Assembly: GCF_036245885.1 (NCBI RefSeq)
Contig: NZ_BTTX01000008.1
Reading direction: 5' to 3' (one strand)
DNA: 64,000 bases
DNA from: Corallococcus caeni
GTDB lineage: Bacteria; Myxococcota; Myxococcia; Myxococcales; Myxococcaceae
This document shows positions 16,455 through 30,642 of this stretch, piece by piece; position 1 is the stretch's first letter; the number at the start of each line of letters is the position of its first letter. The notes under the pieces are model-generated. The model did not search any database and was not told where the DNA came from. It saw nothing but the letters and a program-made list of their open reading frames with translations. The position numbers and the translations under genes are program-made.

Positions 16455-18233
16455 CTACCGGACGTTGAGGGCCGACGGCGGCCCGCCCACCGCCGGCGGG
16501 ACGAAGGGCACCACCTTCTTGTTGTGCCACTGGACCAGCTTCAGCGACGGGTCCTCCAGCGGCACGTCGAAGGTGTAGGAGATGCGCGTGGGGAACTGCC
16601 CGTCCATCTCCTCGATCCGCACCGTCAGGCCCTTCATGTCGAACTCCTGCCCCTGGGCCACCGGGTGGCGCGCCGCGCGGTGGATGCGCTCCTCCACGGA
16701 GTCCAGGAAGTGGCCGCCCTTGGGCAGCGACAGCTCCAGGGAGTTGGGCCCGGTGCGCGTCACCTTCTGCTCGTTGAGCGAATAGGACAGCACCCACCAG
16801 GCCTTCGGCAGGGGCATGCCCGTGGACCACCAGCGCACGGAGCCGTAGATGCCGATGATGCCGTTGGGGGCGTTGAGCACCACCAGCCGCTGCTCCGGTA
16901 GCTTCGTCTCGTCCAGGGCCTCCTGGTAGCGCAGCTGCACGCGCCCCATGAGGGCGTCCGCCTGCGCGTAGGCCTCCGTGGTCTGCCACCAGATGTAGGG
17001 CGCGCCCACGACGTGCACCAGCGCCAGCAGCGCGGCGCCGGCCAGCACCGCGCCCGCGCGGAACGTGCGCGCCCGTCCCTGCCACGCGTGGCGCAGCACC
17101 ACGGCCAGGCCCACCGCCATGCCCAGGCTGGGCACGATGAGCGTGCGCGAGCCGGCGAACGCGGAGTTGGCCAGCCACGTGGACACGAACGCGCCCGTCA
17201 GCATCCAGCCCACCGTGCGTCGCTCCGCGGCCTCCAGCCGGGGCCACACGCCCCACACGAGCAGCGCGAACAGCGTCAGCCCCACGGCGCCCAGCACCGT
17301 GAACAGGGGCACCATGGACGCGTCGAAGATGAAGTCCGGGGGCGCGTTCAGCGTCAGGCCCGCGATGGCGGCCGGGACGCGGGTGAGCATGGCCTTGAAC
17401 CACTCCACGGGCGTCCCCACGGCGTCCAGGTACATGTCCGAGCCCCCCGCGCCGTAGCCCAGCGCGCGGTACAGCGCGAAGTAGCCCGCCATCAGCACGC
17501 CGAAGGGGATGAGCCCCTTGAGCTTGTCCTTCGCCTGCCCCGGGCCGGAGAAGGCCTCGTAGGCCAGCACGTACGGGCTGAGGATGACCATGGTCTCACC
17601 GCTCAGGAGCGCCAGCGCGAAGGACACCAGCGCGCCCACCAGGGAGCCCGTGCGCTTCTCCTCGCGCCACTTCACGTGGAAGTAGATGCCCAGGACGCCG
17701 AAGAGCAGCGACATCACCACGCTGCGGTAGGACAGCCAGCCCAGCACCGCGGAGTGCGAGCCCCAGATGGCGAAGAGGAACATCGCCACGCCCGCCACCG
17801 CCGTGGGCAGCACGCGCTTGAGCAGCACGCCCGCCAGCACCACTATGCCCACGTACCAGAGCACCGAGTGGACCTGATAGGCCACGGCGACGCGGTTGTA
17901 GAGCAGGTGATCCAGTCCGTAGAACAGGCTGCCCAGGGGCCGGAAGAACGCCACGCGCACGGTGGGCTCCACCCACCACGGGAAGACGCCCACCTGCGCC
18001 AGCCGCAGCGTGTGCTCCGGGATGCCGGTGGCGGTGCGGTACACGTCCAGGGGCGTGTTGCCCAGCGGAGCGGGCGGCGGCACGTGGTCCCAGACGCCCA
18101 GCCAGATGAAGTCATCCGGCATGAAGCCCACGCGCAGCACCAGCGCGCCCAGCACCGCCGCGAACGCGACGGAAATCCAGAAGTAACGTTTAAACGGCCA
18201 ACCCGGGGCGGCTGGCGGGGGAGAAGTATCCAT
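16455..18233 (-). CDS. Polytopic membrane protein with C-terminal soluble domain (possibly GT39/PMT-like glycosyltransferase-like); function unknown
   Basis: About 10 predicted TM helices in the N-terminal 420 aa, followed by a ~170-aa soluble C-terminal domain. Convergent with pitA. Confidence 0.55.
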   Translation of the reverse strand: MDTSPPPAAPGWPFKRYFWISVAFAAVLGALVLRVGFMPDDFIWLGVWDHVPPPAPLGNTPLDVYRTATGIPEHTLRLAQVGVFPWWVEPTVRVAFFRPLGSLFYGLDHLLYNRVAVAYQVHSVLWYVGIVVLAGVLLKRVLPTAVAGVAMFLFAIWGSHSAVLGWLSYRSVVMSLLFGVLGIYFHVKWREEKRTGSLVGALVSFALALLSGETMVILSPYVLAYEAFSGPGQAKDKLKGLIPFGVLMAGYFALYRALGYGAGGSDMYLDAVGTPVEWFKAMLTRVPAAIAGLTLNAPPDFIFDASMVPLFTVLGAVGLTLFALLVWGVWPRLEAAERRTVGWMLTGAFVSTWLANSAFAGSRTLIVPSLGMAVGLAVVLRHAWQGRARTFRAGAVLAGAALLALVHVVGAPYIWWQTTEAYAQADALMGRVQLRYQEALDETKLPEQRLVVLNAPNGIIGIYGSVRWWSTGMPLPKAWWVLSYSLNEQKVTRTGPNSLELSLPKGGHFLDSVEERIHRAARHPVAQGQEFDMKGLTVRIEEMDGQFPTRISYTFDVPLEDPSLKLVQWHNKKVVPFVPPAVGGPPSALNVR

Positions 18234-18453: not shown

Positions 18454-19926
18454 ATGCGCATCGCCATCATCGCCACGTACACCCATCCGACCCGCCTGCG
18501 AATCAAGGAACCCTCCATCATGCAGTCCTCCGTGCCGGAGCTCATCGCGGGCCTGTGCCCGGAGCACGCGCAGGTGGAGATCTTCAACGAGAAGGAGGCG
18601 GACCTGCCGTTGGATCGGCACTGGGACCTGGTCTTCTTCTCGTACCTGCACTCGTACTACGAGCACACGAAGGTCCTCTCCACCCTCTTCCGCCAGCGCG
18701 GCATGACGACGGTGGCGGGCGGCCGGCACGCGGGCCACTTCCCCGACGACGCGGCGAAGTACTTCGACGCGGTCATCACCGGGGAGCCGGAGTCCAACGT
18801 GCCCGCGCTCATCGCGGACTTCGAGAAGGGCGAGCTGAAGCCGCGCTACAGCCTGCCCTCGCACGGCGCCGCAGCCATCCGGCCGTACCGCTACGAGCTC
18901 ATCGACTTCACGCACAACAAGGTGCGCCTGCCCGGCATCGAGGCGTCGCGCGGCTGCCCCTTCACCTGCAACTTCTGCGTGCTCACGGGCCACGAGCGCT
19001 ACCGCTTCCGGCCCATCCCGGAGGTCATCGACGAGATCCAGACGCGCATGCGCTGGAACCCGAACTTCCTGGGGCTGATGGGGGACGCGTTCGTCTTCCT
19101 CGACAACAACCTGGGCGGCTCCCCAAAGTACCTGCGCGCGCTGTGCGAAGCGCTCATCCCCCTGAAGAAGACCTGGGGCTGCGCCCTCACCTTCAACGTG
19201 CTCAAGGACGAGTCGCTGGTGAAGCTGATGGCGAAGGCGGGCTGCCGCTACGTCTACACCGGCCTGGAGTCGCTCAACCCGGACTCCATCAAGGCGATGA
19301 ACAAGGGCCAGAACAAGCTGTCGGAGGTGGACGCCGTCATCCGCCGCGTCTTCTCCGCCGGCATCCTCCTGTCCTTCGGGCTCATCGTCGGCTCGGACGG
19401 CGACACCAACGAGTACCTGCACCGGCTGCCGGAGTACCTGGCGGACCTGAAGTACTTCTCCGTCACGTTCCTGGGCATCGTGTGCCCCTACCCGGAGACG
19501 CCCTTCTTCCGCGAGCTCCAGGCGCAAGACAGGCTCCTGCCCGGCACCATCAGCCGCGACTACGACGGCTACACGCTGTGCCACCGGCCCAAGCAGTTGC
19601 ACGCGTCGGAGGTGGTGGAGCACTTCCAGCGGCTGTGCCGCACGCTGGGGAGCCTGCCCAACATCGCGCGGCACTACGCGTCCAAGCTGATGCTGAGCGA
19701 CCTGCCCCGCTACAAGCAGACCATCCTCTTCTCCGGCCCGGAGATCGTCAGCATCCGCAACCCGCTGAAGAACAAGGAGCGCCGCTACATCGCGGGCCTG
19801 GACGCCATCGAGTCCTGGGACGCGGAGCAGATGGCCACGCTGGGCCTCACGCCGCAGGTCTTGACTGGACCCGGGACGGCAGCCGCACGTCCCACGCCAG
19901 TCCCAGGGCTCGCAGCAGGCGGATGA
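18454..19926 (+). CDS. B12-binding-domain radical SAM protein
   Basis: N-terminal cobalamin-binding-like domain (DLVFFS...VAGGRHAGHFPDD) followed by the radical-SAM cluster motif CPFTCNFC. 490 aa. Confidence 0.85.
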   Translation: MRIAIIATYTHPTRLRIKEPSIMQSSVPELIAGLCPEHAQVEIFNEKEADLPLDRHWDLVFFSYLHSYYEHTKVLSTLFRQRGMTTVAGGRHAGHFPDDAAKYFDAVITGEPESNVPALIADFEKGELKPRYSLPSHGAAAIRPYRYELIDFTHNKVRLPGIEASRGCPFTCNFCVLTGHERYRFRPIPEVIDEIQTRMRWNPNFLGLMGDAFVFLDNNLGGSPKYLRALCEALIPLKKTWGCALTFNVLKDESLVKLMAKAGCRYVYTGLESLNPDSIKAMNKGQNKLSEVDAVIRRVFSAGILLSFGLIVGSDGDTNEYLHRLPEYLADLKYFSVTFLGIVCPYPETPFFRELQAQDRLLPGTISRDYDGYTLCHRPKQLHASEVVEHFQRLCRTLGSLPNIARHYASKLMLSDLPRYKQTILFSGPEIVSIRNPLKNKERRYIAGLDAIESWDAEQMATLGLTPQVLTGPGTAAARPTPVPGLAAGG

Positions 19927-20677
19927 AGAGCCAGCCCGGGTCCCACTGCCACCACACCCAGCCGTGCCGCGCGGACGCGGGGAAGGCGTGGTGGTTGTTG
20001 TGCCAGCCCTCGCCCAGCGCCAGCACGCTCACCCACCACACGTTGCGGCTGTGGTCGCGCGTGTCGTGGGCGCGGTGGCCGAACGCCGCGTGGCACACGG
20101 AGTTCACCGCGTAGGTGCTCTGCATCCAGCACACCACGGGCAGGAAGAAGTACGCGGGCACCGCGCGCCAGCCGAACGTCAGCCCCACGAAGAGCACCCC
20201 CAGCACCTGCGGCGCGATGCGGTAGCGCAGCAGCCAGTGGTAGTACCCGTCGTTCGCCAGGTCGCGGCACCAGGTGCGCCAGCCGTCCTCTTCTGTGGAG
20301 GCCTCGTTGAGGATCCACCCCATGTGCGCGTACCAGAAGCCCCGCGCCGGCGAGTGCACGTCCCCTTCCGCGTCCGCCTTCGCGTGGTGCAGCCGGTGGT
20401 TGGCGGCCCACAGCAGCGGGCTGCCCTGCGCGGTGAGCATGGCCACCGTCACCAGCGCGTACTCCACCCAGCGGGGGCACGCGAAGGCGCGGTGGCACAG
20501 GAGGCGGTGCAACCCCACCGTCGTGCCCAGGCCAATGGACACGTACACGGCCAGCGCCACCGGCAGCGCGTACGGCGGCCAGGGCAGGAAGAACGCCAGC
20601 GCGGCCAGCGCGTGCACCACGACCATGTAACCGACGATGACGGGACTGAGCTGGAAGCGGAGCGGTGCGGTGGTCAT
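19847..20677 (-). CDS. Acyl-CoA (stearoyl-CoA Δ9-type) fatty-acid desaturase
   Basis: His boxes HRLLCH, HRLHH and HNNHH in a polytopic membrane protein. The start is taken at the ATG at 20677 (MTTAPLRFQL). The ORF is open to a GTG at 20758. Confidence 0.8.
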   Translation of the reverse strand: MTTAPLRFQLSPVIVGYMVVVHALAALAFFLPWPPYALPVALAVYVSIGLGTTVGLHRLLCHRAFACPRWVEYALVTVAMLTAQGSPLLWAANHRLHHAKADAEGDVHSPARGFWYAHMGWILNEASTEEDGWRTWCRDLANDGYYHWLLRYRIAPQVLGVLFVGLTFGWRAVPAYFFLPVVCWMQSTYAVNSVCHAAFGHRAHDTRDHSRNVWWVSVLALGEGWHNNHHAFPASARHGWVWWQWDPGWLFIRLLRALGLAWDVRLPSRVQSRPAA

Positions 20678-20754
20678 GGCCCGGTGCGGAGTCGAGGAAG
20701 GAGCACGCAGTCTAGGGGCCCCACCTGACGGGACAAGGAATGCGTCCCCCGGTG

Positions 20755-23700
20755 TCACATCACGCGGACGTCACGGGCGCCTGACGCCTGGGGCACAGGC
20801 AGCGCCTCCGCGGGCGGGAGCCGGGTCGCGGCCTGGAAGCGGTCCATGCGGCGCAGCTCCGCGCGGGCCTCCACCTCCGTGAAGATTTCACGCGCGCGGG
20901 CGAGGAAGGCCTCGCGCCGGTGCGGCAGGGCCACCGCCGCGTCGAAGTAGGCCACGCCCGTCTCCCACCGGTTGGGGCTCTTCTCCAGGACGGCGATGGC
21001 CTCCAGGAACACCGGCTCCGCGGCCCTGGGGCCCTTGCGCAGGGCCAGCGAGCGCGCCGTCACGCGCAGCGCCGGGCCCTTCAGGTACGGGTAGAGCCGG
21101 GCGATGAAGCGCGCCTTGATGCAGGACAGCCGCACGATTCGCAGCAGCTTCCTGCGCGGCACCACCGTGGCGCCCTCCTCCAGCGCGAAGAGGGCCGCCT
21201 CCGCCGCGTCCACCAGCCCCACCTGGAGGAAGGGCACCAGCACCTGGTAGCTCCAGATGCTCTGGAAGCAGCGCACCGCGACGAGCGCCGCCTCCTCCAC
21301 CTGGTGCTCGCGCACCGTGACGTTGGCCAGGTGGTTGAGGCTGGCGCACTGGTTGGCCAGGTCCGCAACCTCCACGCTGATGCGCAGGCCCTGCTCCAGC
21401 TCCGCGCACAGCTCGCCCACGTCGCCTTCGCCCAGCAGGTAGCGGCACATGGGCGCCCACGAGTGCGCCCAGCCCTGGTGCATCAGCGCGTTGAGCTCCA
21501 CGCCAATGGTCTTCATCTGCTCGTAGAGCGCCTCCGCCGTGCGGAAGCGCGAGTGGAGGAACTCGCCCGTGGCCTGCATCATCAGGGACGTCTGGCGCTC
21601 CCAGCGCTCGCCCACCTGGCGCAGCGTGGAGACGGCCTCCTCCTGGAACTCCCGCGCGCGCTGCAGCTCGTTGGCGAAGAAGGCCTGGATGCCCAGGCGG
21701 CTGAGCGCGAGCCCCTCCGCCACCGGGTCCTTGGAGCGCCGCGCGTACTCCAGCGCCTTCTCGCAGTGGTAGCGCGCGCGCTTGAGCAGCCCCGCGCCGA
21801 ACAGCAGCGTGCCGTAGTAGCCGCGCGCCAGGCTCATGGCGTAGTCGCTGCGCGAGCGCTCCGCCATGTTCGTGGACACCAGCGTCGCCCACGTGAGCTT
21901 CATGATGTCCGCGAAGTAGTAGATGCGGATGAGCGAGTTGAGCGTGGACAGCTGCTGGAGGTAGTTGCCCTGCCGGGACGCCGGCAGCGGCCGCAGGATG
22001 AACGGCAGGAGCGAGGCCAGCCCCCGCAGCAGCAGGTTGGCCAGCGTGCGCAGGCCCAGCGCGGGCAGGCTCCCCGGCAGGCTGCGGCCCCGGAGCACCA
22101 GGGACTTCTCCAGGTGCTGCGTGGCGAGCGCGGACTCGCCCTTCTCCTGGTGCGCGCGGCCCAGGCCCAGGTGCAGCTCCGCCTGGCGCTGGGGGTCCTC
22201 TTCGTCCACCAGGCACTGCTCGAACATCAGGATGGCGTTGGCGTAGTGGCCCGCCTGGAGCAGCGTCTCCGCCAGCTCCTGCATCACCCGGCGCATCTTG
22301 ACGAGCATCGCATCCGGGTCCACGGGGGCGACGGTGCCCAAAAGCTCCACGCCGCGGTTGTAGTGGTAGAGCGCGTCGTCGTTCGCGTACTGCGCCCGCG
22401 CGCTGCGGGCCGCCATCAGCGTGTACTCCAGGCCCTTGTCCTCCACGTTGCCCGCGAGGAAGTGGAACGCGAGCAGACCCGCGGAGGCCGCGAGGTTGTC
22501 GTTCGCGCGGACCTCCAGGTAGCGCGCGAGCCGGCGGTGCAGGTCCTCGCGCGCCGACACCAGGAGCGTGTTGTAGGCCACGTCCCGGATGACGATGTGC
22601 TTGAAGAGGCAGGTGTACGGCTCCTCCTGCTCCAGCAGGATGAGGCCCAGGCGCTGGAGCGTGTCCATGGCCTCGCGCAGGCGCTGCGCGCCCAGGGTGG
22701 GCACCAGCGCCGCCACCGCGTCCAGCGTGAAGATGCGCCCGATGACGGACGCCACCTTCACCACCAGCTTCTCCGTCTCGCTGAGCAGGTCGATGCGCGA
22801 CAGCACCACGTCCTGGATGGAGTCCGGCAGCAGCAGGTCCTGCAGGCCGCGCTTGAGCTCCATCCGCGTGGAGCCGGGCTCCGCCAGGCCCAGGTAGCCC
22901 TGCTCCGCCAGGCCCTCCACGATGGATTCGATGAAGAACGGGTTGCCCTGCACCTTCGCGAGCAGCCGGTCCTCCAACGCGACGTCCGGCGGCGACAGGC
23001 GCAGGTGCACGCGCAACAGCGCCCGCGTGTCCTCGTCGTCCAGGCTCACCAGGTCCACGGGGAGGAACTCGGGCAGCTCGCGCAGGCCCTTGACCTGGTC
23101 GCCCGGGCGCATCGTCGCCAGCACCATGATGCGGTGCGAACCCACGCGCACCGCGAGGTGCTGGAGCAGGTCCAACGAGATGTAGTCCGCCCAGTGCAGG
23201 TCCTCGAAGAAGAGCAGCAGCGGCTGCGAGCGGCTGAGCTTCTCCAGCAACAGGAAGACGATCTGGAACACCTTCTGCTGCTTGCGCCGCGCGTCCATCC
23301 CCGCCGTGGCGGACGTCTCCTCCAGCGACATGCCGAGGATGCCCGCCACCACCGGGATCCACTCCGGCCCCACGTCCTCCAGCCCCTCCAGGCCCTGGCG
23401 CAGGCGCGTGAGCTGCGCCTCGGTGTCGTCCGAGTCGTGCAGCCCGAAGGCCTGGAGCAGCACCTCCTTCCAGGGGAAGAAGGGGGTGAAGGCCTCGTAG
23501 GAGTAGCAGACGCCGTACAGCGCCCGCGCGCCGCCCTCCTCCGCGTCCTCCAGCACGCGCGCGCCCAGCCGCGACTTGCCGATGCCCGCCTCGCCGGACA
23601 CCACGCACACGCGGCCCTGGCCGGCGAACGAGGCGTTGAGCGCTTCGTGCAGCACGTTGAGCTCGCGGCTGCGGCCGATGATGTCGCCCCGGCCCTTGAT

Positions 23701-25056
23701 GAAGAGGCCGCGGCGCGTCTCCCCCAGGAGCCGGTACACCGGCACCGGGCGCGAGACGCCCTTGAGCTTCGCGTCCTCCACGAACTCGGTGGCGAAGCCG
23801 CCCTGCTGCGAGCGCGCCTGGGTGTTGGCGCACAGGTGCACGCCGTCCTGGCGTCCGCCGTGCGTCATCAGGCGCGCGGCCATGTTCACGACCTCGCCCA
23901 GCGCCGAGTAGCCCTTGCGCGTGGGCGAGCCCATGTCACCGCAGTACGCGTGGCCGGTGGCGATGCCCATCTGCAGCTCCCCCAGGAAGGGGAACTGCTC
24001 GCGCGCCTTGAGCAGCTTGCAGGCCAGCCGGCACGCCAGGACCTCCTTGTTCTGCTGCGCGGTGGGCGCGCCGAACAGGACGTAGAGCACGTTGCCCTTG
24101 TCCGTGAAGTCCGTCATCAGCAGCACGCCGCCGTGGTGGGCGCTCTCGCGCTGGACGAACTCGTAGTAGGCGTTGAGGTCCCGGGTGAAGGCGTCCGGAT
24201 CCGCGTCCGACGACGCGTGGGTGAAGCGCACGAAGAAGCAGGTGACGTCGCGGAAGTCGCCCGCGAACTCCTGGTGCGCGGTGGTGATCTTCGTGAAGAG
24301 CACCGGGTGCAAGAGCAGCGCGCACCGGCCCACCAGCTCCGCCCCGCCCGTGGGCGCGGGCAGCGGGCGCTTCACGGCCTCCACCGGCGCGTCGAGCGCC
24401 AGCCGGTGGTTGCCACCCTCGCGCGGCTCGCCCCTGCGCGCGGCCTCCGGCAGCGCGGCCCAGGCGCGGGGGCTCAGGACGACCTCCGACACCGTGGCCT
24501 GCTTCTCCGCGCCCACCGCCTGCGCCAGCGGCTCGCCCACGAGCGCCGGGTGCATCCACAGGCCGGTGGCGCCCATCACGATGCGGGTCGCCTCCCCGAA
24601 GCCGATGCCGATGCGCGACGACACGCCGAAGCGCTGGCCCATCAGCTCCAGCCGGGCGAAGCGCGCCAGCCTGCGCTGCACGCTCAGCGCGCACACCGCC
24701 GCGCGCTGCACGACGTCGCCGTCCGCCTCGCCGGGCGCGGCCTCGAAGCACGCGAGGATGGAGTCACCGGCGAACTGGTAGATGTCCCCACCGTGGTCCC
24801 GGACCACGTCGATCATCTCCGTGTAGTAGTTCGTCAGCAGGCGCTGGAGCGCGTCGATGCCGCGCGGGCCCGCGCCGCTCAGCCCCACCACGATGGGCGT
24901 GAAGCCCGCGATGTCGAGGAGCAGGATGGCGCCCCGCACCCCTTCCGCGCGGGGCAGCGCGTCCGCCTCCTGGCTCCCGAGCCGCGCGAGGATGGCCGCC
25001 GGCATGTAGGGCGCCAGCGTCGCGACGACGGGATCGATGGGCTGCGTGGAGGGCAT
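20755..25056 (-). CDS. Large signalling protein with two tandem class-III adenylate/guanylate cyclase domains, a P-loop NTPase (AAA_16/STAND-like) domain and a TPR region
   Basis: First cyclase domain: ILLLDIAGFT...GDIYQFAGDSILACF...RIGIGFGEA. Second cyclase domain: CFFVRFTHAS...LYVLFGAP...GIATGHAYCGDMGS. Walker A: VSGEAGIGKS. The C-terminal ~700 aa are helical and TPR-like. 1433 aa. Confidence 0.85.
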   Translation of the reverse strand: MPSTQPIDPVVATLAPYMPAAILARLGSQEADALPRAEGVRGAILLLDIAGFTPIVVGLSGAGPRGIDALQRLLTNYYTEMIDVVRDHGGDIYQFAGDSILACFEAAPGEADGDVVQRAAVCALSVQRRLARFARLELMGQRFGVSSRIGIGFGEATRIVMGATGLWMHPALVGEPLAQAVGAEKQATVSEVVLSPRAWAALPEAARRGEPREGGNHRLALDAPVEAVKRPLPAPTGGAELVGRCALLLHPVLFTKITTAHQEFAGDFRDVTCFFVRFTHASSDADPDAFTRDLNAYYEFVQRESAHHGGVLLMTDFTDKGNVLYVLFGAPTAQQNKEVLACRLACKLLKAREQFPFLGELQMGIATGHAYCGDMGSPTRKGYSALGEVVNMAARLMTHGGRQDGVHLCANTQARSQQGGFATEFVEDAKLKGVSRPVPVYRLLGETRRGLFIKGRGDIIGRSRELNVLHEALNASFAGQGRVCVVSGEAGIGKSRLGARVLEDAEEGGARALYGVCYSYEAFTPFFPWKEVLLQAFGLHDSDDTEAQLTRLRQGLEGLEDVGPEWIPVVAGILGMSLEETSATAGMDARRKQQKVFQIVFLLLEKLSRSQPLLLFFEDLHWADYISLDLLQHLAVRVGSHRIMVLATMRPGDQVKGLRELPEFLPVDLVSLDDEDTRALLRVHLRLSPPDVALEDRLLAKVQGNPFFIESIVEGLAEQGYLGLAEPGSTRMELKRGLQDLLLPDSIQDVVLSRIDLLSETEKLVVKVASVIGRIFTLDAVAALVPTLGAQRLREAMDTLQRLGLILLEQEEPYTCLFKHIVIRDVAYNTLLVSAREDLHRRLARYLEVRANDNLAASAGLLAFHFLAGNVEDKGLEYTLMAARSARAQYANDDALYHYNRGVELLGTVAPVDPDAMLVKMRRVMQELAETLLQAGHYANAILMFEQCLVDEEDPQRQAELHLGLGRAHQEKGESALATQHLEKSLVLRGRSLPGSLPALGLRTLANLLLRGLASLLPFILRPLPASRQGNYLQQLSTLNSLIRIYYFADIMKLTWATLVSTNMAERSRSDYAMSLARGYYGTLLFGAGLLKRARYHCEKALEYARRSKDPVAEGLALSRLGIQAFFANELQRAREFQEEAVSTLRQVGERWERQTSLMMQATGEFLHSRFRTAEALYEQMKTIGVELNALMHQGWAHSWAPMCRYLLGEGDVGELCAELEQGLRISVEVADLANQCASLNHLANVTVREHQVEEAALVAVRCFQSIWSYQVLVPFLQVGLVDAAEAALFALEEGATVVPRRKLLRIVRLSCIKARFIARLYPYLKGPALRVTARSLALRKGPRAAEPVFLEAIAVLEKSPNRWETGVAYFDAAVALPHRREAFLARAREIFTEVEARAELRRMDRFQAATRLPPAEALPVPQASGARDVRVM

Positions 25057-25072
25057 CCCCGGGGCTTTCCGC

Positions 25073-25474
25073 TCAGGACAACGTGGCGTAGCGCAGGTAG
25101 AGGGCGCCCAGACACACGGCGCCGTAGAGAGGAATCTCCGCCGTCTCCGTCCAGGGCTGCTGCTTCATGACCGCGCCCCAGACATGCACCGCGGTCATGA
25201 TGCCGCCAATGAGGCCGATGAGCTCGAAGATGACCAGGTGGCTCTTGGGGTCCGGGATGAACTGCACCACCGCGATGATGACGGACAGCGCCAGGCCGCC
25301 CAGGCAGCGCGCGAAGTAGACCGTCAAATCGTTGTTGCCCGTGGGCAGCTCCCAGCCGAACCATCGCGCCCAGCGCAGCGGCACGAACAGCAACGGCAGC
25401 GCGTAGACGACCGCGAAGACCGAGGTGGAGACCGCGAGGAACCAGCTGGCCAGCGGATAGTCGGGGTTGATCAT
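25073..25474 (-). CDS. Small integral membrane protein (4 predicted TM helices), function unknown
   Basis: Hydrophobic ORF whose stop is 16 bp upstream of the cyclase gene start. The start is taken at the Met MINPDYPLASW (25474). The ORF is open to 25540. Confidence 0.45.
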   Translation of the reverse strand: MINPDYPLASWFLAVSTSVFAVVYALPLLFVPLRWARWFGWELPTGNNDLTVYFARCLGGLALSVIIAVVQFIPDPKSHLVIFELIGLIGGIMTAVHVWGAVMKQQPWTETAEIPLYGAVCLGALYLRYATLS

Positions 25475-25607
25475 GATGGCGGGCGAGGCAAGGGCTCCGG
25501 GCGTCCTGCTGCCGGGCGCACCCTGCCCCACGCCGTCCATCCTAGAATCTTTTCCCTCCCCGTGGGGCGCCTTCCCCCCGCCCGGCCCCCGTCAGCCCGG
25601 CTGCCGC

Positions 25608-26138
25608 CTAGCGGGTGGCGGCCAGGAGGAACTCGGCCACCCGCTCCAGGGAGAGGGTCCGCTCGGCTTCCGCCGGGAAGCGCCGGAAGGCCTCCGGTGG
25701 CCCGTGCAGGATGAGCGGCTTGCCATAGCGCAGCGCCAGGACGGCCTCCGCCGCGGTGCCCGCCCCTCCGGGCAGCGCGACCAGGGCATGCGGCGTCAGC
25801 ACGTTGATGTGGTTGCGGCTCATGGGGTCCGTGCCCTGCTCCCCGCTGAGCGGCAGGTGCGTGTAGATGGGGATTTCGATGTCCGTGTTCGGGTAGCCGG
25901 GCCGGGGCTGGTAGCGGCCATCCGCCCCGACGGTGCCGGGGATGATGCCGATGGCCGCCCCCCGCCGCCCCTCCACCTGGACGAATGCCGCGGTGGCCAC
26001 GCTCATGACGCCGCCCCCCGCGCCGGTCAGCAGGTCGAAGCCCGCCTCCGCAATCCACCGCGCCAGGGGGATGACCCACTCCTCGTGGGTCTCCGTGCCG
26101 GAGCCGAAGACTCCGATGATGCGGCGGTGTCTGCGCAT
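25608..26138 (-). CDS. LOG-family / TIGR00725-like Rossmann-fold nucleotide-binding protein
   Basis: LOG motifs GAGGGVM and PGGAGTAAE. ~176 aa. GGAGG lies 9 nt upstream of the ATG at 26138. Confidence 0.7.
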   Translation of the reverse strand: MRRHRRIIGVFGSGTETHEEWVIPLARWIAEAGFDLLTGAGGGVMSVATAAFVQVEGRRGAAIGIIPGTVGADGRYQPRPGYPNTDIEIPIYTHLPLSGEQGTDPMSRNHINVLTPHALVALPGGAGTAAEAVLALRYGKPLILHGPPEAFRRFPAEAERTLSLERVAEFLLAATR

Positions 26139-26381: not shown

Positions 26382-26687
26382 ATGTTCGACGCCTGTGGAG
26401 GTTGTGAGCGCCGTGGCACCGCCGGAGAGGTGTTCGACTGGTGCGCGCACTGCGAGCTGTCCCTGTGTCCCGGCTGCCTCCAGCGCGGCTGCTGCGGCAG
26501 CGTGCCCGCGGACTCCGGGCGGGGCGCGCCGAAGGAGCTCCCCGAGCCGCCCCCCGCCGAGCGCGAGCCCCTGCCGGAGGACTTCGGCGGCCGCTGCTGC
26601 ACCCACGCCCGCGCGGTGGCGTGCTCGTGCGCCTTCCACTGGGTCTGCGTGCGCCACGGTGACCTGCACGTGGGGACCCACGACTGA
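26382..26687 (+). CDS. Small cysteine-rich protein (15 Cys in 101 aa; putative zinc-ribbon/B-box-like)
   Basis: Strong RBS AAGGAGG 8 nt upstream of the ATG. CxxC pairs (CGGC, CAHC, CPGC, CSC). Confidence 0.5.
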   Translation: MFDACGGCERRGTAGEVFDWCAHCELSLCPGCLQRGCCGSVPADSGRGAPKELPEPPPAEREPLPEDFGGRCCTHARAVACSCAFHWVCVRHGDLHVGTHD

Positions 26688-26796
26688 TGACGTGAAGCAT
26701 CACCCCTGTGTGGGCGTTGACACACGGGCGGCCCGTCCACGACGGTTCCGGTTCTTTCGGGCATTGCCGCCCGGACACCGCACGGAGCACGACACC

Positions 26797-27189
26797 ATGG
26801 GACTCGCCGAACGGAAGGAAATGGCCGCCTTCAAGAAGGACTACCTCGCGCCGAAGGTGGCGGAGCTGAAGGAGGCCGCGGGGGGCGCGGACATCCAGGT
26901 GACCCTCGACGAGGCGAGCTTCACCAGCGTGGCCGCCATCCAGATGATCTCCAACGGCTTCTTCGACCGGCTCATCGACGACATGAAGTACATCTGCAAC
27001 GACGACGTCGGGAAGGAGGCCGTCCGGGACGGCGTCAAGGTGGTGCAGGTCTCCCACAAGGAGGACCCGGGCTACACGCTGGACCTGTCGGGAGGCACGC
27101 TCACCCTGCGCGCGAAGCTGGACGGCTCCATCGGCGAGGACCTGCCCGGCTACGGGGCCTACAAGGACCTGATGCTGAAGAAGCTGTAG
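26797..27189 (+). CDS. Hypothetical protein (130 aa)
   Basis: Protein-like composition (MGLAERKEMAAFKKDYLAPKVAELKEAAGG...). The ATG at 26797 has GGAG at about -10. The ORF is open from 26395. Confidence 0.45.
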   Translation: MGLAERKEMAAFKKDYLAPKVAELKEAAGGADIQVTLDEASFTSVAAIQMISNGFFDRLIDDMKYICNDDVGKEAVRDGVKVVQVSHKEDPGYTLDLSGGTLTLRAKLDGSIGEDLPGYGAYKDLMLKKL

Positions 27190-27258: not shown

Positions 27259-30200
27259 TCAGGGCACGTCCAGCGCGACGCCCTGTCCCGGCACGGCCAT
27301 CACCCAGCGGACGACGTCCGGCTTGCCGCCGCAGGTGACGCGCACCTCGAACTCACGCCCCGCGGGCATGGCGCTGGCGAGCGGCGTCTGGCCCTGGAGC
27401 ACCTGCGAGCCCAGCGCCACGCGGCAGCCCTGGGCGCCGGTGATGCTGAGCGTGCCCTGGGCCTCCGCCTGGGGCGCGGCGTCCGCGAGCGTGCGCAGGT
27501 CGATGTGCTCCGACCTGGGCACCTTGCCGAAGCGGTGCAGCTTGCCCTCCACGGCCGTGGAGACGAGCCAGCCGGAGGGGTCCTCCGGCAGGGCGTTGCT
27601 GCCTTCCAGCAGCACGCCGGACACGTAGACGCGCTCGCCCTCCTGGGCGTTGCGCACCTCCACGCCGCCCTTGGGCAGCAGGAACACCAGCGCGAGCCCC
27701 GCGAACACCAGGCCCACGCCGCCCACGACGAGCCCCTTGCGCTGGCCGGGCGTCAGCCCCTTCCCCGCCGCTTCGGCGGCGGGCACCGGGGCCGCGGGGG
27801 CCACGGCGTGGACGGGCGCTGGCGGCGGGGCCACCGGAGCCGCCGGAGGCCGCGCGGGCGTGGCCACCTGCGGCGGCGGCGGAGCGGCCACGGGCGGTGG
27901 CGGCGGCGCGGGGTGGTTCCCGCCATGGGCCGCGTGCGTGCCCGACTGCGGCGGGTAGGCACCTGCCTGCGGCGCGGGCGCGACCCCGTATTGCGCGTGG
28001 GTGCCCCCGTGCTGCGGGTGGGCGGCGACGGGGCTGGGCGGCAGGGCGGCCACGGGCGGTGGCGGCGGGGCCGCGGTCAGGGGCGCCACGGAGGGCACCG
28101 ACACCGACGGACGCTGCGGCGGGGGCCCCACGCGCGTGGGCACGTTGGCGGAGGCCGCCGGGCGCACCGCGGTGGGCGGCGGCAGCGGCGACACGGGCGG
28201 AGGCGCGGCCGGGCGCGACGGACGGGGCGCGGGCGCGGCGGCGACGGGCGGGGCGACCGGGGGACGCGACGGATCCGAGGTGACGGAGACGACCTCCGTG
28301 CCGCGCTCGGCGGGCTCCGGCGGGGACGCCACCGGGGGCGGCTCCATCCGGGGCATGCTGCCGGAGCCGCCGCGCACGGGCGGACGGGACAGGTCCGACG
28401 GGGCGCGCATGTCGCTGCCGGAGCCCGTGCCCGGGACGCGCGAGTGCGAGCCCGTCCCCGGCATCAGCGCCCGGGGGTTGGAGCCCGTGCCCGAGCCGGC
28501 GATGGACGACGGCGCGTACTCGGAGAGCCGGTCGCCCAGCGCCTCCTTGAAGAACTGCGCCACCGACGCGGGCGACGAGGACAGCCGGTGGTGCGTGATG
28601 ACGGCCTCGATCTCCTCGCGCATCGCCGCCGCGGTGGGCGTGCGGCGCGCGGGGTCCTTCACCAGCGCGCGCAGGATGAGGTCCGACACGTCCTGCGGGA
28701 TGTGGGGCCGCAGCTGCGAGGGCACCGGCGCGGGCTCGCGCACGATGGCCGCCAGCGTGGCCGCGTCGTGGTCGCGGCGGAACGGCAGCTGTCCGGTGAG
28801 CAGCTCGAAGAGCACCACGCCCAGCGCGAACACGTCGTTGCGCCAGTCCAGCGGACGGCCGCTGGCGGCCTCCGGGGAGAGGTAGGAAATCTTCCCCTTG
28901 ATGACGCCCGCCTGCGTCTGCTCCTCGCCCTGCACCTTGGCGATGCCGAAGTCCGACAGCTTGATGGCGCCGTCCAGCGACACCAGCACGTTGTGGGGGC
29001 TGACGTCGCGGTGCACCACCGGGTGCGCGGTGCCGGACGGGTCCACGTAGCTGTGCGCGTAGTGCAGACCCGCGGCCACCTCCGCCACGATGCGCAGCGC
29101 GTGCTCCAGGGGCAGCGCCATGCCCTTGCGGCGCAGCTCCGTGAGCAGGCGCTTCAGGTCCGGGCCGCGCACGTACTCCATCAGGATGTACGCCACGCCG
29201 TCCGTCACGCCCACGTCGAAGGTCTGGACGATGTTGGGGTGCGTGAGGCGCGCGTTGGCGCGGGCCTCCGCGAAGAGCATGTCGACGAACTCAGGATTCT
29301 CAGCGAACTGCGCGAGAATCTTCTTCATCACGACGAACTTCTCGAAGCCCTTCACGCCCTGCTGCTTGGCGAGGAAGACCTCCGCCATGCCGCCCTGCCC
29401 CAGCCGGCGGATGATCTGCAGCCGGGCGCCGCTGTTGTGCGTGTCCGTGGCGGACGTGCCCTTGGCGCCGGGGTCCTGGTTGGTGGAGCCGAAGAGGTAC
29501 TGGCTGAGCGCGCGCTGCTCCAACGCCTCGATGTCGTCCAGCGGCTTGTCGGTGAGCGGCGTACGCGCGAGCAGCCCCTGGAACTGCGCGAGCGCCGGGG
29601 CCCGGGCGTTGCCGCCGCACACGGGGCACACGCGGTCCAGGGTGCCCTTGGCGCGCAGGACCTCCAGGTACTCGGAGGTCTGGATGCGCTGGTGGGTGAC
29701 CTGGCCGCAGTTGCGGCAGTCGCACGGCAGCCACAGCGTGGCCAGCTTCGCCGGCAGCGCCTTGGTGGACTTCGCCAGCACGCCCAGCAGCGGCGGCGGC
29801 ACGCGGCAGAGCACCACCTGGGCGCCCTGCGACGCCACCTCCAGCACCTGTTCGATGCGCGGCAGCGCCTCCGGCTCCACCGTGCTCACGTGGCAGCAGT
29901 CGAACGCGACGCGCCCCTCCAGGCCGGACGCCAGCCGGCGCACGTTGAGGTCGCCCTTGAGCGTGCTGGCCAGGGTGATGAAGGTGATGTCGTCCTGGAC
30001 GATCTTCAGGTGCGAGGAGAGCTCGGACGGCTCGTTGGGGAGGCCCGCGCGCAGGTAGCGCAGCACGGCGGGGTCCACCGCGGAGAACTGCTGGCGGCGC
30101 GCGAAGTCGAAGAACTCCGTGGGCTCGTCCGCGAACTCCAGCGGCTGGGCGCACACGGGGCAGTGGTGCGGCGGGGCGCCGCCCGCCTCCACGACCTTGC

Positions 30201-30642
30201 TCTCCTCCACCAGACGGACCAGCCGCAGCCGGTCCTCCTTGCAGAAGCGGCAGGAGTACGGCGCGAGCAGCGACAGCACGCGCGCGACGCCCGCGAAGCC
30301 CTCCACCATGTTGAGCTGATCCACCACCACCGGAGGGGCGTTGACGACGTACAGCCCCGACACGCCCTGCGGCGGGTGGCCGGCGAATTCAATCCACCGG
30401 CGCACACCGAAGGAGCTGATGCGCTCCACCAGCCCCAGGTCCACCACCACCAGGCCCTGGAGGCCCTTGGACGCCGGCGAGAGGGGGAAGGTTTCGTCGA
30501 TCACCCCGGCCACGCGCACGTGGGTCAGACTGCCCACGCGCAGGGAGGTGATGCTGGCATTGGAAGTTTGGCTCTCCACCCGCCTACCCTCGTTCCAGAC
30601 AGAACAGCAGCGACTTGGGCTGCGCGGCCCGGCGGCGCGCAT
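27259..30642 (-). CDS. Membrane-anchored Hanks-type Ser/Thr protein kinase with N-terminal STAS (anti-sigma-antagonist-like) domain and Zn-ribbon Cys pairs
   Basis: N-terminal STAS-like segment VAGVIDETF...LVVVDLGLVERISSFGVRRWIEF. Cys pairs CRFC, CPVC, CDCRNC and CPVCGG. Kinase subdomains GQGGMAEVF, VMKK, HRDVSPHNVLV, DFGIA and SPE. Pro/Ala-rich linker, a TM segment LVVGGVGLVFAGLALVFLL and an extracytoplasmic C-terminal domain. An alternative GTG start lies near 30579. Confidence 0.9.
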   Translation of the reverse strand: MRAAGPRSPSRCCSVWNEGRRVESQTSNASITSLRVGSLTHVRVAGVIDETFPLSPASKGLQGLVVVDLGLVERISSFGVRRWIEFAGHPPQGVSGLYVVNAPPVVVDQLNMVEGFAGVARVLSLLAPYSCRFCKEDRLRLVRLVEESKVVEAGGAPPHHCPVCAQPLEFADEPTEFFDFARRQQFSAVDPAVLRYLRAGLPNEPSELSSHLKIVQDDITFITLASTLKGDLNVRRLASGLEGRVAFDCCHVSTVEPEALPRIEQVLEVASQGAQVVLCRVPPPLLGVLAKSTKALPAKLATLWLPCDCRNCGQVTHQRIQTSEYLEVLRAKGTLDRVCPVCGGNARAPALAQFQGLLARTPLTDKPLDDIEALEQRALSQYLFGSTNQDPGAKGTSATDTHNSGARLQIIRRLGQGGMAEVFLAKQQGVKGFEKFVVMKKILAQFAENPEFVDMLFAEARANARLTHPNIVQTFDVGVTDGVAYILMEYVRGPDLKRLLTELRRKGMALPLEHALRIVAEVAAGLHYAHSYVDPSGTAHPVVHRDVSPHNVLVSLDGAIKLSDFGIAKVQGEEQTQAGVIKGKISYLSPEAASGRPLDWRNDVFALGVVLFELLTGQLPFRRDHDAATLAAIVREPAPVPSQLRPHIPQDVSDLILRALVKDPARRTPTAAAMREEIEAVITHHRLSSSPASVAQFFKEALGDRLSEYAPSSIAGSGTGSNPRALMPGTGSHSRVPGTGSGSDMRAPSDLSRPPVRGGSGSMPRMEPPPVASPPEPAERGTEVVSVTSDPSRPPVAPPVAAAPAPRPSRPAAPPPVSPLPPPTAVRPAASANVPTRVGPPPQRPSVSVPSVAPLTAAPPPPPVAALPPSPVAAHPQHGGTHAQYGVAPAPQAGAYPPQSGTHAAHGGNHPAPPPPPVAAPPPPQVATPARPPAAPVAPPPAPVHAVAPAAPVPAAEAAGKGLTPGQRKGLVVGGVGLVFAGLALVFLLPKGGVEVRNAQEGERVYVSGVLLEGSNALPEDPSGWLVSTAVEGKLHRFGKVPRSEHIDLRTLADAAPQAEAQGTLSITGAQGCRVALGSQVLQGQTPLASAMPAGREFEVRVTCGGKPDVVRWVMAVPGQGVALDVP

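Follow-up and report, generated by a model that had tools for sequence, protein, structure and literature searches.

Bacterial class III cyclases that join two cyclase homology domains (CHDs) to a P-loop NTPase and tetratricopeptide repeats (TPRs) have already been described, and a protein of this kind, 1433 aa in length, is encoded in the Corallococcus caeni DNA analyzed here (contig NZ_BTTX01000008.1; "the window" hereafter means the whole 64,000-nt stretch). In Leptospira interrogans, LA_4008 has a tandem pair of class III CHDs that is followed by an AAA ATPase and by TPRs; Lehmann et al. (2013) named MXAN_4545, COCOR_04748 (from Corallococcus coralloides) and STAUR_4866 as its orthologues, and reported that culture supernatant had a cyclic AMP (cAMP)-elevating activity on macrophages that was depleted with an anti-LA_4008 antibody (PMC3789758). 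In the literature on MXAN_4545 and its neighbors, only this study and an antiSMASH table boundary were found. In human soluble adenylyl cyclase (sAC; ADCY10, 1610 aa), the CHDs form a C1–C2 pseudo-heterodimer and are followed by a P-loop NTPase. The Rv0386-type proteins of Mycobacterium tuberculosis likewise fuse a class III CHD to an AAA_16 STAND NTPase, but they contain a single CHD, must therefore homodimerize, and have a C-terminal LuxR-type helix-turn-helix. Kobayashi, Buck and Levin (2004) reportedly described sAC-like cyclases of Chloroflexus aurantiacus in which a pair of CHDs precedes a long C-terminal part resembling that of sAC. The Chloroflexus sAC-like enzyme has been shown to respond to bicarbonate (PMC11006738).

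The window cyclase (20755–25056, minus strand) shows the same order of CHDs, ATPase and TPRs as LA_4008 and is 33% identical over its full length to the L. interrogans homologue, which contains the exact LA_4008 immunogen peptide. The nearest genome match to the window is Corallococcus exercitus, the cyclase of which is 97% identical; Chloroflexi-type homologues among the matches show 25–32% identity, and ADCY10 about 19%. The LA_4008 gene differs from the window gene in having a GMC oxidoreductase gene upstream and no SLOG or small membrane protein gene beside it. Moreover, it occurs in Leptospira only in pathogenic species and was proposed as a virulence factor, whereas the window gene lies in a conserved core block. 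We put a probability of about 0.75 on the joint reading that the cyclase is an sAC homologue of the LA_4008/MXAN_4545/COCOR_04748 family, that the small membrane protein encoded just upstream is probably co-transcribed with it, that the SLOG gene further upstream is separate and that the desaturase gene downstream is unrelated.

A preliminary description of the locus, made from its sequence, had regarded two CHDs fused to a STAND ATPase as uncommon. This view did not hold, because C1 and C2 occur in the same order in 114 of the 120 best homologues, a Corallococcus orthologue has been published, and 1,239 cluster representatives at 50% identity match the tandem region at E ≤ 1e-30 (HMMER, 1.84 billion representatives searched). 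Nearly all of the top 150 matches run as a single stretch over both CHDs, and most of these proteins are 1,300–1,450 aa long; the named sources include Myxococcota, Leptospira, Treponema, Anaerolineae, Oscillochloridaceae and Actinomycetota. The tandem-CHD/STAND/TPR architecture is thus neither rare nor new, and the family is already described. Two paralogues, P0058 and P0059 (Hyalangium gracile and a metagenome), keep the same STAND–TPR chassis (42–43% identity over 79% of the query), but where the cyclase domains would be they have a Ser/Thr protein-kinase domain, apparently through an exchange of the output domain.

Domain structure and active site of the cyclase

Pfam assigned to the window cyclase an AAA_16 domain (E 8e-24), TPRs (TPR_12, TPR_2 and TPR_1) and one Guanylate_cyc match at residues 270–437 (E 2e-12), all scoring above or near threshold, and no DNA-binding domain was seen in this search. 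When the N-terminal 264 residues were searched alone, Guanylate_cyc reached only 13 bits, so that in Pfam C2 passes the threshold and C1 does not. By the refuting condition set in the preliminary description, this score would speak against tandem CHDs; that reading was rejected, because a genuine C1 domain is evident from sequence search, family profile and structure alike. In a phmmer search of the PDB, the best match was human sAC (E 1e-21), with query residues 14–201 aligned to its C1 and 262–448 to its C2, and a profile of 110 homologues matched sAC C1 with 119 bits and sAC C2 with 125 bits. The AlphaFold (AF2) model of residues 1–455 had a mean predicted local distance difference test score (pLDDT) of 92.9 and a predicted template-modeling score (pTM) of 0.92. 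In a Foldseek search with this model, the top 24 PDB matches were all human sAC, with template-modeling (TM) scores of about 0.78–0.83 across the full model (0.82 for 4usu/4clf over all 455 residues), followed by membrane AC9 C1–C2 pairs and then by single-domain bacterial cyclases.

The domains extend over residues ~10–215 (C1), ~258–448 (C2) and ~460–645 (STAND P-loop NTPase, AAA_16, of MalT type), the last with both Walker A (GEAGIGKS) and Walker B (LLLFFED) intact, and the TPR/helical repeats reach from there to the C-terminus. The domain content given in the preliminary description is therefore correct. Its comparison with the pseudo-heterodimers of mammalian adenylyl cyclases is also sound, the specific relative being sAC, which shares the P-loop NTPase after the CHDs. 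A full-length family hidden Markov model aligned without a break, with 405 bits, to residues 17–869 of a transcribed human ADCY10 sequence, the two CHD segments of which agree with the PDB phmmer alignments. Such a match cannot have arisen by chance. With the same transcribed sequence, the alignment takes in the P-loop, Walker B and the GNPFF/GIPFY region, and the C-terminal repeats show only weak similarity; homology would thus begin at C1, extend to the end of the NTPase module and be weak beyond it. A PDB search with the STAND/TPR half returned only designed TPRs and LGN, the PDB copy searched containing neither a full-length sAC structure nor one of this half of an sAC-type enzyme.

The residues of the active site were compared among 52 close homologues as well as more distant ones. 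The metal-binding aspartates D48 and D98 in C1 are invariant (52/52), as is the transition-state arginine R395 in C2 (52/52), while the transition-state asparagine N391 in C2 is found in 50 of the 52; all four are nearly invariant among distant homologues too. The same set is kept in LA_4008, and ADCY10 likewise has its metal Asp pair in C1 and its Asn/Arg in C2. In C2, Arg277 takes the place of the first metal Asp, which leaves a single active site beside a degenerate pseudo-site, an arrangement shared with sAC, with C1 supplying the metal ligands and C2 the transition-state residues. The expectation in the preliminary description that one half-site may be degenerate was thereby confirmed. 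In the model, the two CHDs pair intramolecularly as a pseudo-heterodimer with a single catalytic site. The conservation of metal and transition-state residues makes catalysis by the window cyclase likely.

The ligand-contacting residues of sAC are replaced. K334, the adenine contact, corresponds to Met314 (M 42, Q 9 and H 1 in the close clade; Leu in the LA_4008 orthologue), and its partner T405 corresponds to Ser384 (W 22, S 21, T 9), a Ser/Thr position in both ADCY10 and the window cyclase. At the bicarbonate-binding positions, K95 is replaced by Gln94 (Q in 52/52 of the close clade, and also in LA_4008) and R176 by Val181 (V 46, I 6). The window cyclase thus has neither the adenine-selecting Lys/Thr pair nor the bicarbonate-binding Lys95/Arg176 of sAC. 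Lys at the K95 and K334 positions is kept in about a third of the distant, Chloroflexi-type homologues, but not in the myxobacterial clade. Because Gln and Val stand where sAC has Lys and Arg, activation by bicarbonate of the sAC type is unlikely, in contrast to the bicarbonate-stimulated Chloroflexus enzyme.

These substitutions bear on whether the product of the cyclase is some nucleotide besides cAMP, or whether the protein serves mainly as a nucleotide-binding sensor. The variable residues at the K334 (M/Q/H, or L in the LA_4008 orthologue) and T405 (S/W/T) positions are compatible with this, and so are the weak matches that Pycsar cyclase models gave with C1 and C2. The Rv0386-type proteins, which resemble the window cyclase in their non-canonical substrate-selecting residues, offer a precedent, as Rv0386 has Gln/Asn and a side guanylyl cyclase activity. 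However, the conserved metal and transition-state residues argue for catalysis, the functional data within the clade point to cAMP (PMC3789758), the Pycsar matches reflect similarity common to CHDs in general, and an effector of the Pycsar type is lacking. We therefore consider another product, or a mainly sensory role, distinctly unlikely. A further variant holds that the Myxococcia/Leptospira branch, in which the adenine-selecting Lys has given way to Met/Leu/Gln and the bicarbonate-site Lys and Arg to an invariant Gln and to Val/Ile while the catalytic Asp/Asp/Asn/Arg set is kept, makes a different cyclic nucleotide or senses another ligand in the pseudo-symmetric site, with, in myxobacteria, the SLOG protein and the four-helix membrane protein as a dedicated sensor/effector pair; this is quite improbable. 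A role in defense of the Pycsar or CBASS type was rejected. PADLOC gave only weak partial PycC matches (best E 2e-10), attributable to generic CHD similarity, and no match for the SLOG or small membrane protein; in addition, the cyclase block is conserved core genome rather than a defense-island context.

Homology, together with the indirect LA_4008 data, makes cAMP the most likely product by analogy. Lehmann et al. further suggested for LA_4008 and "predatory Myxococcales" a secreted toxin that raises cAMP in prey or hosts, a proposal which fits the antibody-depleted, macrophage-active supernatant (PMC3789758) and the predatory life of myxobacteria. For the window cyclase we regard it as very unlikely, because the N-terminus enters the C1 fold directly with no signal-peptide-like segment, and because the same architecture occurs in non-pathogenic, non-predatory Anaerolineae, Oscillochloridaceae and Actinomycetota and in many metagenomic clusters. 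Myxobacterial prey is, moreover, mostly bacterial, and the gene lies in a conserved core-genome block amid housekeeping-type genes.

The small membrane protein, the SLOG gene and their linkage to the cyclase

The preliminary description placed the cyclase in a run of four minus-strand genes, and all four open reading frames (ORFs) were located at exactly the positions given there: a 176-aa SLOG protein (25608–26138), a 133-aa small membrane protein (25073–25474), the cyclase and a 276-aa desaturase (19847–20677). As read from the sequence, 133 nt separate the SLOG stop from the membrane protein ATG (25474), 16 nt lie between the membrane protein stop and the cyclase ATG, and 77 nt between the cyclase stop and the desaturase ATG; the latter two gaps had been given as 16 and about 75 bp. 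GC content is ~70% in the window, and at third codon positions (GC3) it is 0.92–0.98 in the four frames (0.93 in the membrane protein gene) versus 0.42–0.76 in overlapping alternative frames, so the four ORFs are real genes. The run is flanked downstream by a convergent gene for a B12-binding radical-SAM protein (18454–19926, plus strand; identified with Pfam and NCBIfam) and upstream by a divergent gene for a 264-aa protein (26395–27189, plus strand).

To follow this gene order, six window proteins were located by tblastn in 76 loci with relatives of the cyclase. Upstream genes were counted at the 34 Myxococcaceae/Archangiaceae loci with enough upstream flank and the radical-SAM gene at the 39 with downstream flank, cyclase identity within these families being 56–97%. 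The SLOG, membrane protein and cyclase genes were adjacent and co-oriented in 31/34 loci, down to ~59% cyclase identity, and the membrane protein gene adjoined the cyclase gene in 32 of the 34; the trio is present in Stigmatella too. It has been lost in two Myxococcus species (L020 and L032), while in a Polyangia metagenome-assembled genome (MAG; L027) rsfS stands in place of the SLOG gene and the membrane protein and cyclase genes are still paired. The convergent radical-SAM gene, 79–98% identical, adjoined the cyclase gene in 35/39 loci. It serves as a synteny control, since a convergent gene cannot share the cyclase transcript, and because it was kept about as often, adjacency at this depth is what inherited gene order alone gives.

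Outside the clade, neither the SLOG nor the membrane protein gene was detected by tblastn beside cyclase orthologues at any of ~36 loci (Leptospira, Treponema, Leptospirales and other MAGs; 24–41% identity). When 63 proteins encoded in the flanks of 20 loci from outside the myxobacteria were assigned to Pfam families, neither PF18306 nor a recurrent partner was found, FA_hydroxylase and Radical_SAM being the commonest families with three proteins each. Remote homologues of the membrane protein and of the SLOG protein, as well as a 71%-identical SLOG protein of Archangium violaceum, lie in unrelated neighborhoods. A 177-aa ORF upstream of one remote membrane protein homologue (L081) was considered as a SLOG gene and rejected, as it is not a SLOG. 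Taken together, the synteny that the preliminary description expected in relatives was seen throughout most of one clade and at none of the loci compared beyond it, and no conserved four-gene operon or module beyond inherited synteny was found.

The 176-aa protein is a SLOG cluster-4, Moco carrier protein (MCP)-like ligand-binding protein, and by curated thresholds not a LOG. Pfam PF18306 (SLOG cluster 4) matched residues 6–146 with 84.2 bits (cutoff 26.3) and was present in all 120 homologues among the matches listed, whereas the LOG model PF03641 gave 18.4 bits (cutoff 27), TIGR00725 41.7 (106.9) and TIGR00730 21.4 (96.35). The best PDB sequence match was the MCP 2iz5 (Chlamydomonas; E 4e-9). 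The AF2 model (pLDDT 95.7), of SLOG Rossmann-like fold, was closest to 2iz5 and to 6y01 (Rippkaea), with TM scores of 0.72–0.74 and 28–31% identity, while LOG enzymes ranked lower at 16–22% identity. The name "LOG/TIGR00725-like" of the preliminary description is therefore apt for the SLOG superfamily and fails for LOG itself. With the LOG phosphoribohydrolases the protein shares the PGGxGTxxE motif (as PGGAGTAAE) and the preceding Arg, which do not discriminate, since MCP-type proteins share most of the motif. Other motifs are GAGGGVM, THLPLSG and SRNH; in the family alignment R108 (within SRNH) is invariant over 40 homologues, and the block GYPN...THLPLSG...SRNH is specific to this subfamily, its GYPN...THLPLSG part being an insert that sets the protein apart from MCP and LOG. 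The subfamily has many invariant polar residues. No Moco-related genes were found nearby in the window. The A. violaceum SLOG cluster-4 gene mentioned above (L083:6435-8549) stands beside a divergent cytochrome P450 gene, with neither the membrane protein nor the cyclase gene, and the chain of the Rippkaea Moco-binding structure 6y01 was titled "p450 cytochrome, putative" by its depositors.

In the membrane protein, three hydrophobic segments are strong and a fourth is weaker, i.e. three to four helices, so that of the four transmembrane segments first proposed three are clear. Neither it nor its relatives had a Pfam match, even at E ≤ 5; UniRef names the relatives DUF4345, a label which the Pfam search did not reproduce. 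Different genera share the start at ATG 25474 (133 aa), with the sequence ATGATCAAC, and not the one at ATG 25540. The public 155-aa annotation (e.g. in Corallococcus caeni) uses an ATG that overlaps the 3' end of a −10-like motif, TCTAGGATG. This motif lies in the spacer between the SLOG and membrane protein genes (25475–25607, minus strand). In an alignment of nine genera or species, a TAnnnT hexamer was kept in 9/9 taxa at ~60–70 nt before the membrane protein start (TAGGAT at ~25545–25540 in the window; TAGAAT, TATGCT or TATGAT in relatives), while the flanking sequence has diverged. Our inference is that this hexamer may be the −10 element that drives the membrane protein and cyclase genes.

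The pairing of membrane protein and cyclase is the only linkage that we consider probable, because of the 16-nt spacer, the retention in 32/34 loci including the SLOG-less L027, and the −10-like element upstream of the membrane protein gene. The two would probably be co-transcribed from a promoter in the SLOG–membrane protein spacer, and the membrane protein might, speculatively, tether or modulate the cyclase; the SLOG gene is more probably a separate unit. Alternatively, SLOG, membrane protein and cyclase may cooperate as a cassette in which, for example, the cyclic nucleotide or some ligand derived from a nucleotide is bound or processed by the SLOG protein, with the membrane protein as effector or anchor. 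The co-oriented trio in 31/34 loci, the nature of SLOG domains as nucleotide- or ligand-binding folds and the many invariant polar residues of this SLOG subfamily are in keeping with such cooperation. However, with the radical-SAM gene kept in 35/39 loci, adjacency does not separate function from inherited order, and neither gene accompanies the cyclase at the ~36 outside loci, their remote homologues being found in unrelated contexts. The loss of the membrane protein in L020 and L032, the absence of SLOG from L027, the −10-like element between the two genes and the lack of a PADLOC match for either also speak against the cassette, which we judge unlikely but not negligible. The LOG–cyclase second-messenger module of the preliminary description fares no better, as the pairing is limited to one clade, the radical-SAM control is kept about as often and the −10-like element separates the SLOG gene from the others.

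The desaturase and other flanking genes

The 276-aa protein is predicted to be a membrane fatty-acid desaturase, with the three His boxes of the Δ9 type: HRLLCH at 57, HRLHH at 94 and HNNHH at 226 (HX4H, HX2HH and HX2HH). It matched PF00487 (FA_desaturase) with 64.5 bits (threshold 29.7), in line with the first assignment, and stayed below the cutoff of NCBIfam DesA (92.8 versus 400). The gene follows the cyclase gene at only 14 loci (L001–L012, L016 and L031), all of them in Corallococcus, Citreicoccus or a single MAG. The Hyalangium versicolor copy is on the opposite strand, past the radical-SAM gene, and tblastn did not find the gene at the locus in Myxococcus, Pyxidicoccus or the remaining lineages. 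The desaturase is thus an unrelated, lineage-specific neighbor. A −10-like TAGACT at 20708–20713 (minus strand) precedes the desaturase ATG by ~30 nt and could mark a promoter distinct from that of the cyclase; the folded RNA of this cyclase–desaturase spacer showed no terminator-like structure (z = 0.63).

These findings largely refute, through synteny, the four-gene module of the preliminary description, in which a nucleotide second messenger acts with a LOG-type N-glycosidase and the output is coupled to membrane lipid desaturation. The shared strand and short spacers would suit such a module, as would the recurrence of lipid-related genes (FA_hydroxylase, lipase_3, α/β-hydrolase, YhhN) beside distant orthologues. 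On the other hand, the desaturase follows the cyclase only in the few genomes named above, TAGACT is found in the 77-nt spacer, the SLOG protein falls short of the LOG cutoffs and has MCP as its closest relative, and the lipid-related neighbors are of differing families in each lineage, none of them in more than 3 of the 63 proteins. This module, with its proposed coupling to lipid desaturation, is in our view extremely improbable.

Outside the clade, the flanks of the cyclase gene vary and are often lipid-related, comprising FA_hydroxylase, lipase_3, α/β-hydrolase, YhhN, PEBP and GMC oxidoreductase genes (at L045, L054, L060, L038, L040, L056, L043 and L042), none of which recurs widely; the FA_hydroxylase flank is a divergent gene at three related Leptospirales loci. 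The radical-SAM gene itself encodes a class-B (B12-binding) protein that is better conserved than the cyclase, with no NCBIfam model at cutoff. In a distant Myxococcota MAG (L040:11298-12605), a 30%-identical B12-binding radical-SAM gene is co-directional with the cyclase orthologue and starts 38 bp after it. In the window, the 3' ends of the desaturase (minus) and radical-SAM (plus) genes overlap by 80 bp (19847–19926), and tblastn coordinates suggest a like overlap at several other Corallococcus loci (e.g. L001).

Further out, a coding ORF for 592 aa (16455–18233, minus strand; GC3 0.97) and the divergent one for 264 aa (GC3 0.85) had no Pfam or NCBIfam match. The latter gene, which is divergent from the SLOG gene, shows 49–90% identity, mostly in partial tblastn matches, to sequences at Corallococcus, Myxococcus and related loci. 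A gene for an 1127-aa Ser/Thr protein kinase follows at 27259–30642 (minus strand), and within it, 3' of the kinase domain, positions 28000–28499 are unusually GC-rich (GC 0.83, GC skew +0.18). Rfam, run over the whole window, detected no RNA element and no riboswitch in the spacers.

Proposed regulation of the cyclase and meaning for the family

By analogy with other STAND proteins, the STAND/TPR half of the cyclase would gate its catalytic half through ligand- and nucleotide-dependent conformational switching or oligomerization. Similar gating has been proposed for full-length sAC, which is autoinhibited (PMC11006738). Several points count against the joint reading favored here. Regulation by the STAND/TPR half is inferred by analogy only, and the support for cAMP from LA_4008 is indirect, coming from the action of culture supernatant on macrophages. 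With Met314 in place of the adenine-binding Lys and a varying partner (S/W/T), ATP specificity cannot be taken for granted. No cNMP-binding, CRP-type or phosphodiesterase gene was found within ~15 kb around the cyclase. A scan for consensus promoters and terminators gave no sigma-70 site, which is uninformative in a 70% GC genome, and its two terminator-like sites, both inside genes, are at chance level. The promoter is predicted from the TAnnnT hexamer, and read-through from the SLOG gene may occur.

Overall, the locus shows no new kind of system, and a module around the cyclase is not supported. Public records name these genes only "AAA family ATPase", and their C1 goes unnoticed by Pfam, so that sAC homologues in many bacteria are under-recognized. 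The non-canonical residues at the substrate and bicarbonate sites of the clade are the one point that is perhaps worth further work. The myxobacterial/leptospiral clade is without the residues on which the ATP specificity and bicarbonate sensing of mammalian sAC depend, and as a natural contrast it would be of use in studies of the control that the STAND/TPR half exerts over catalysis in sAC-type enzymes.

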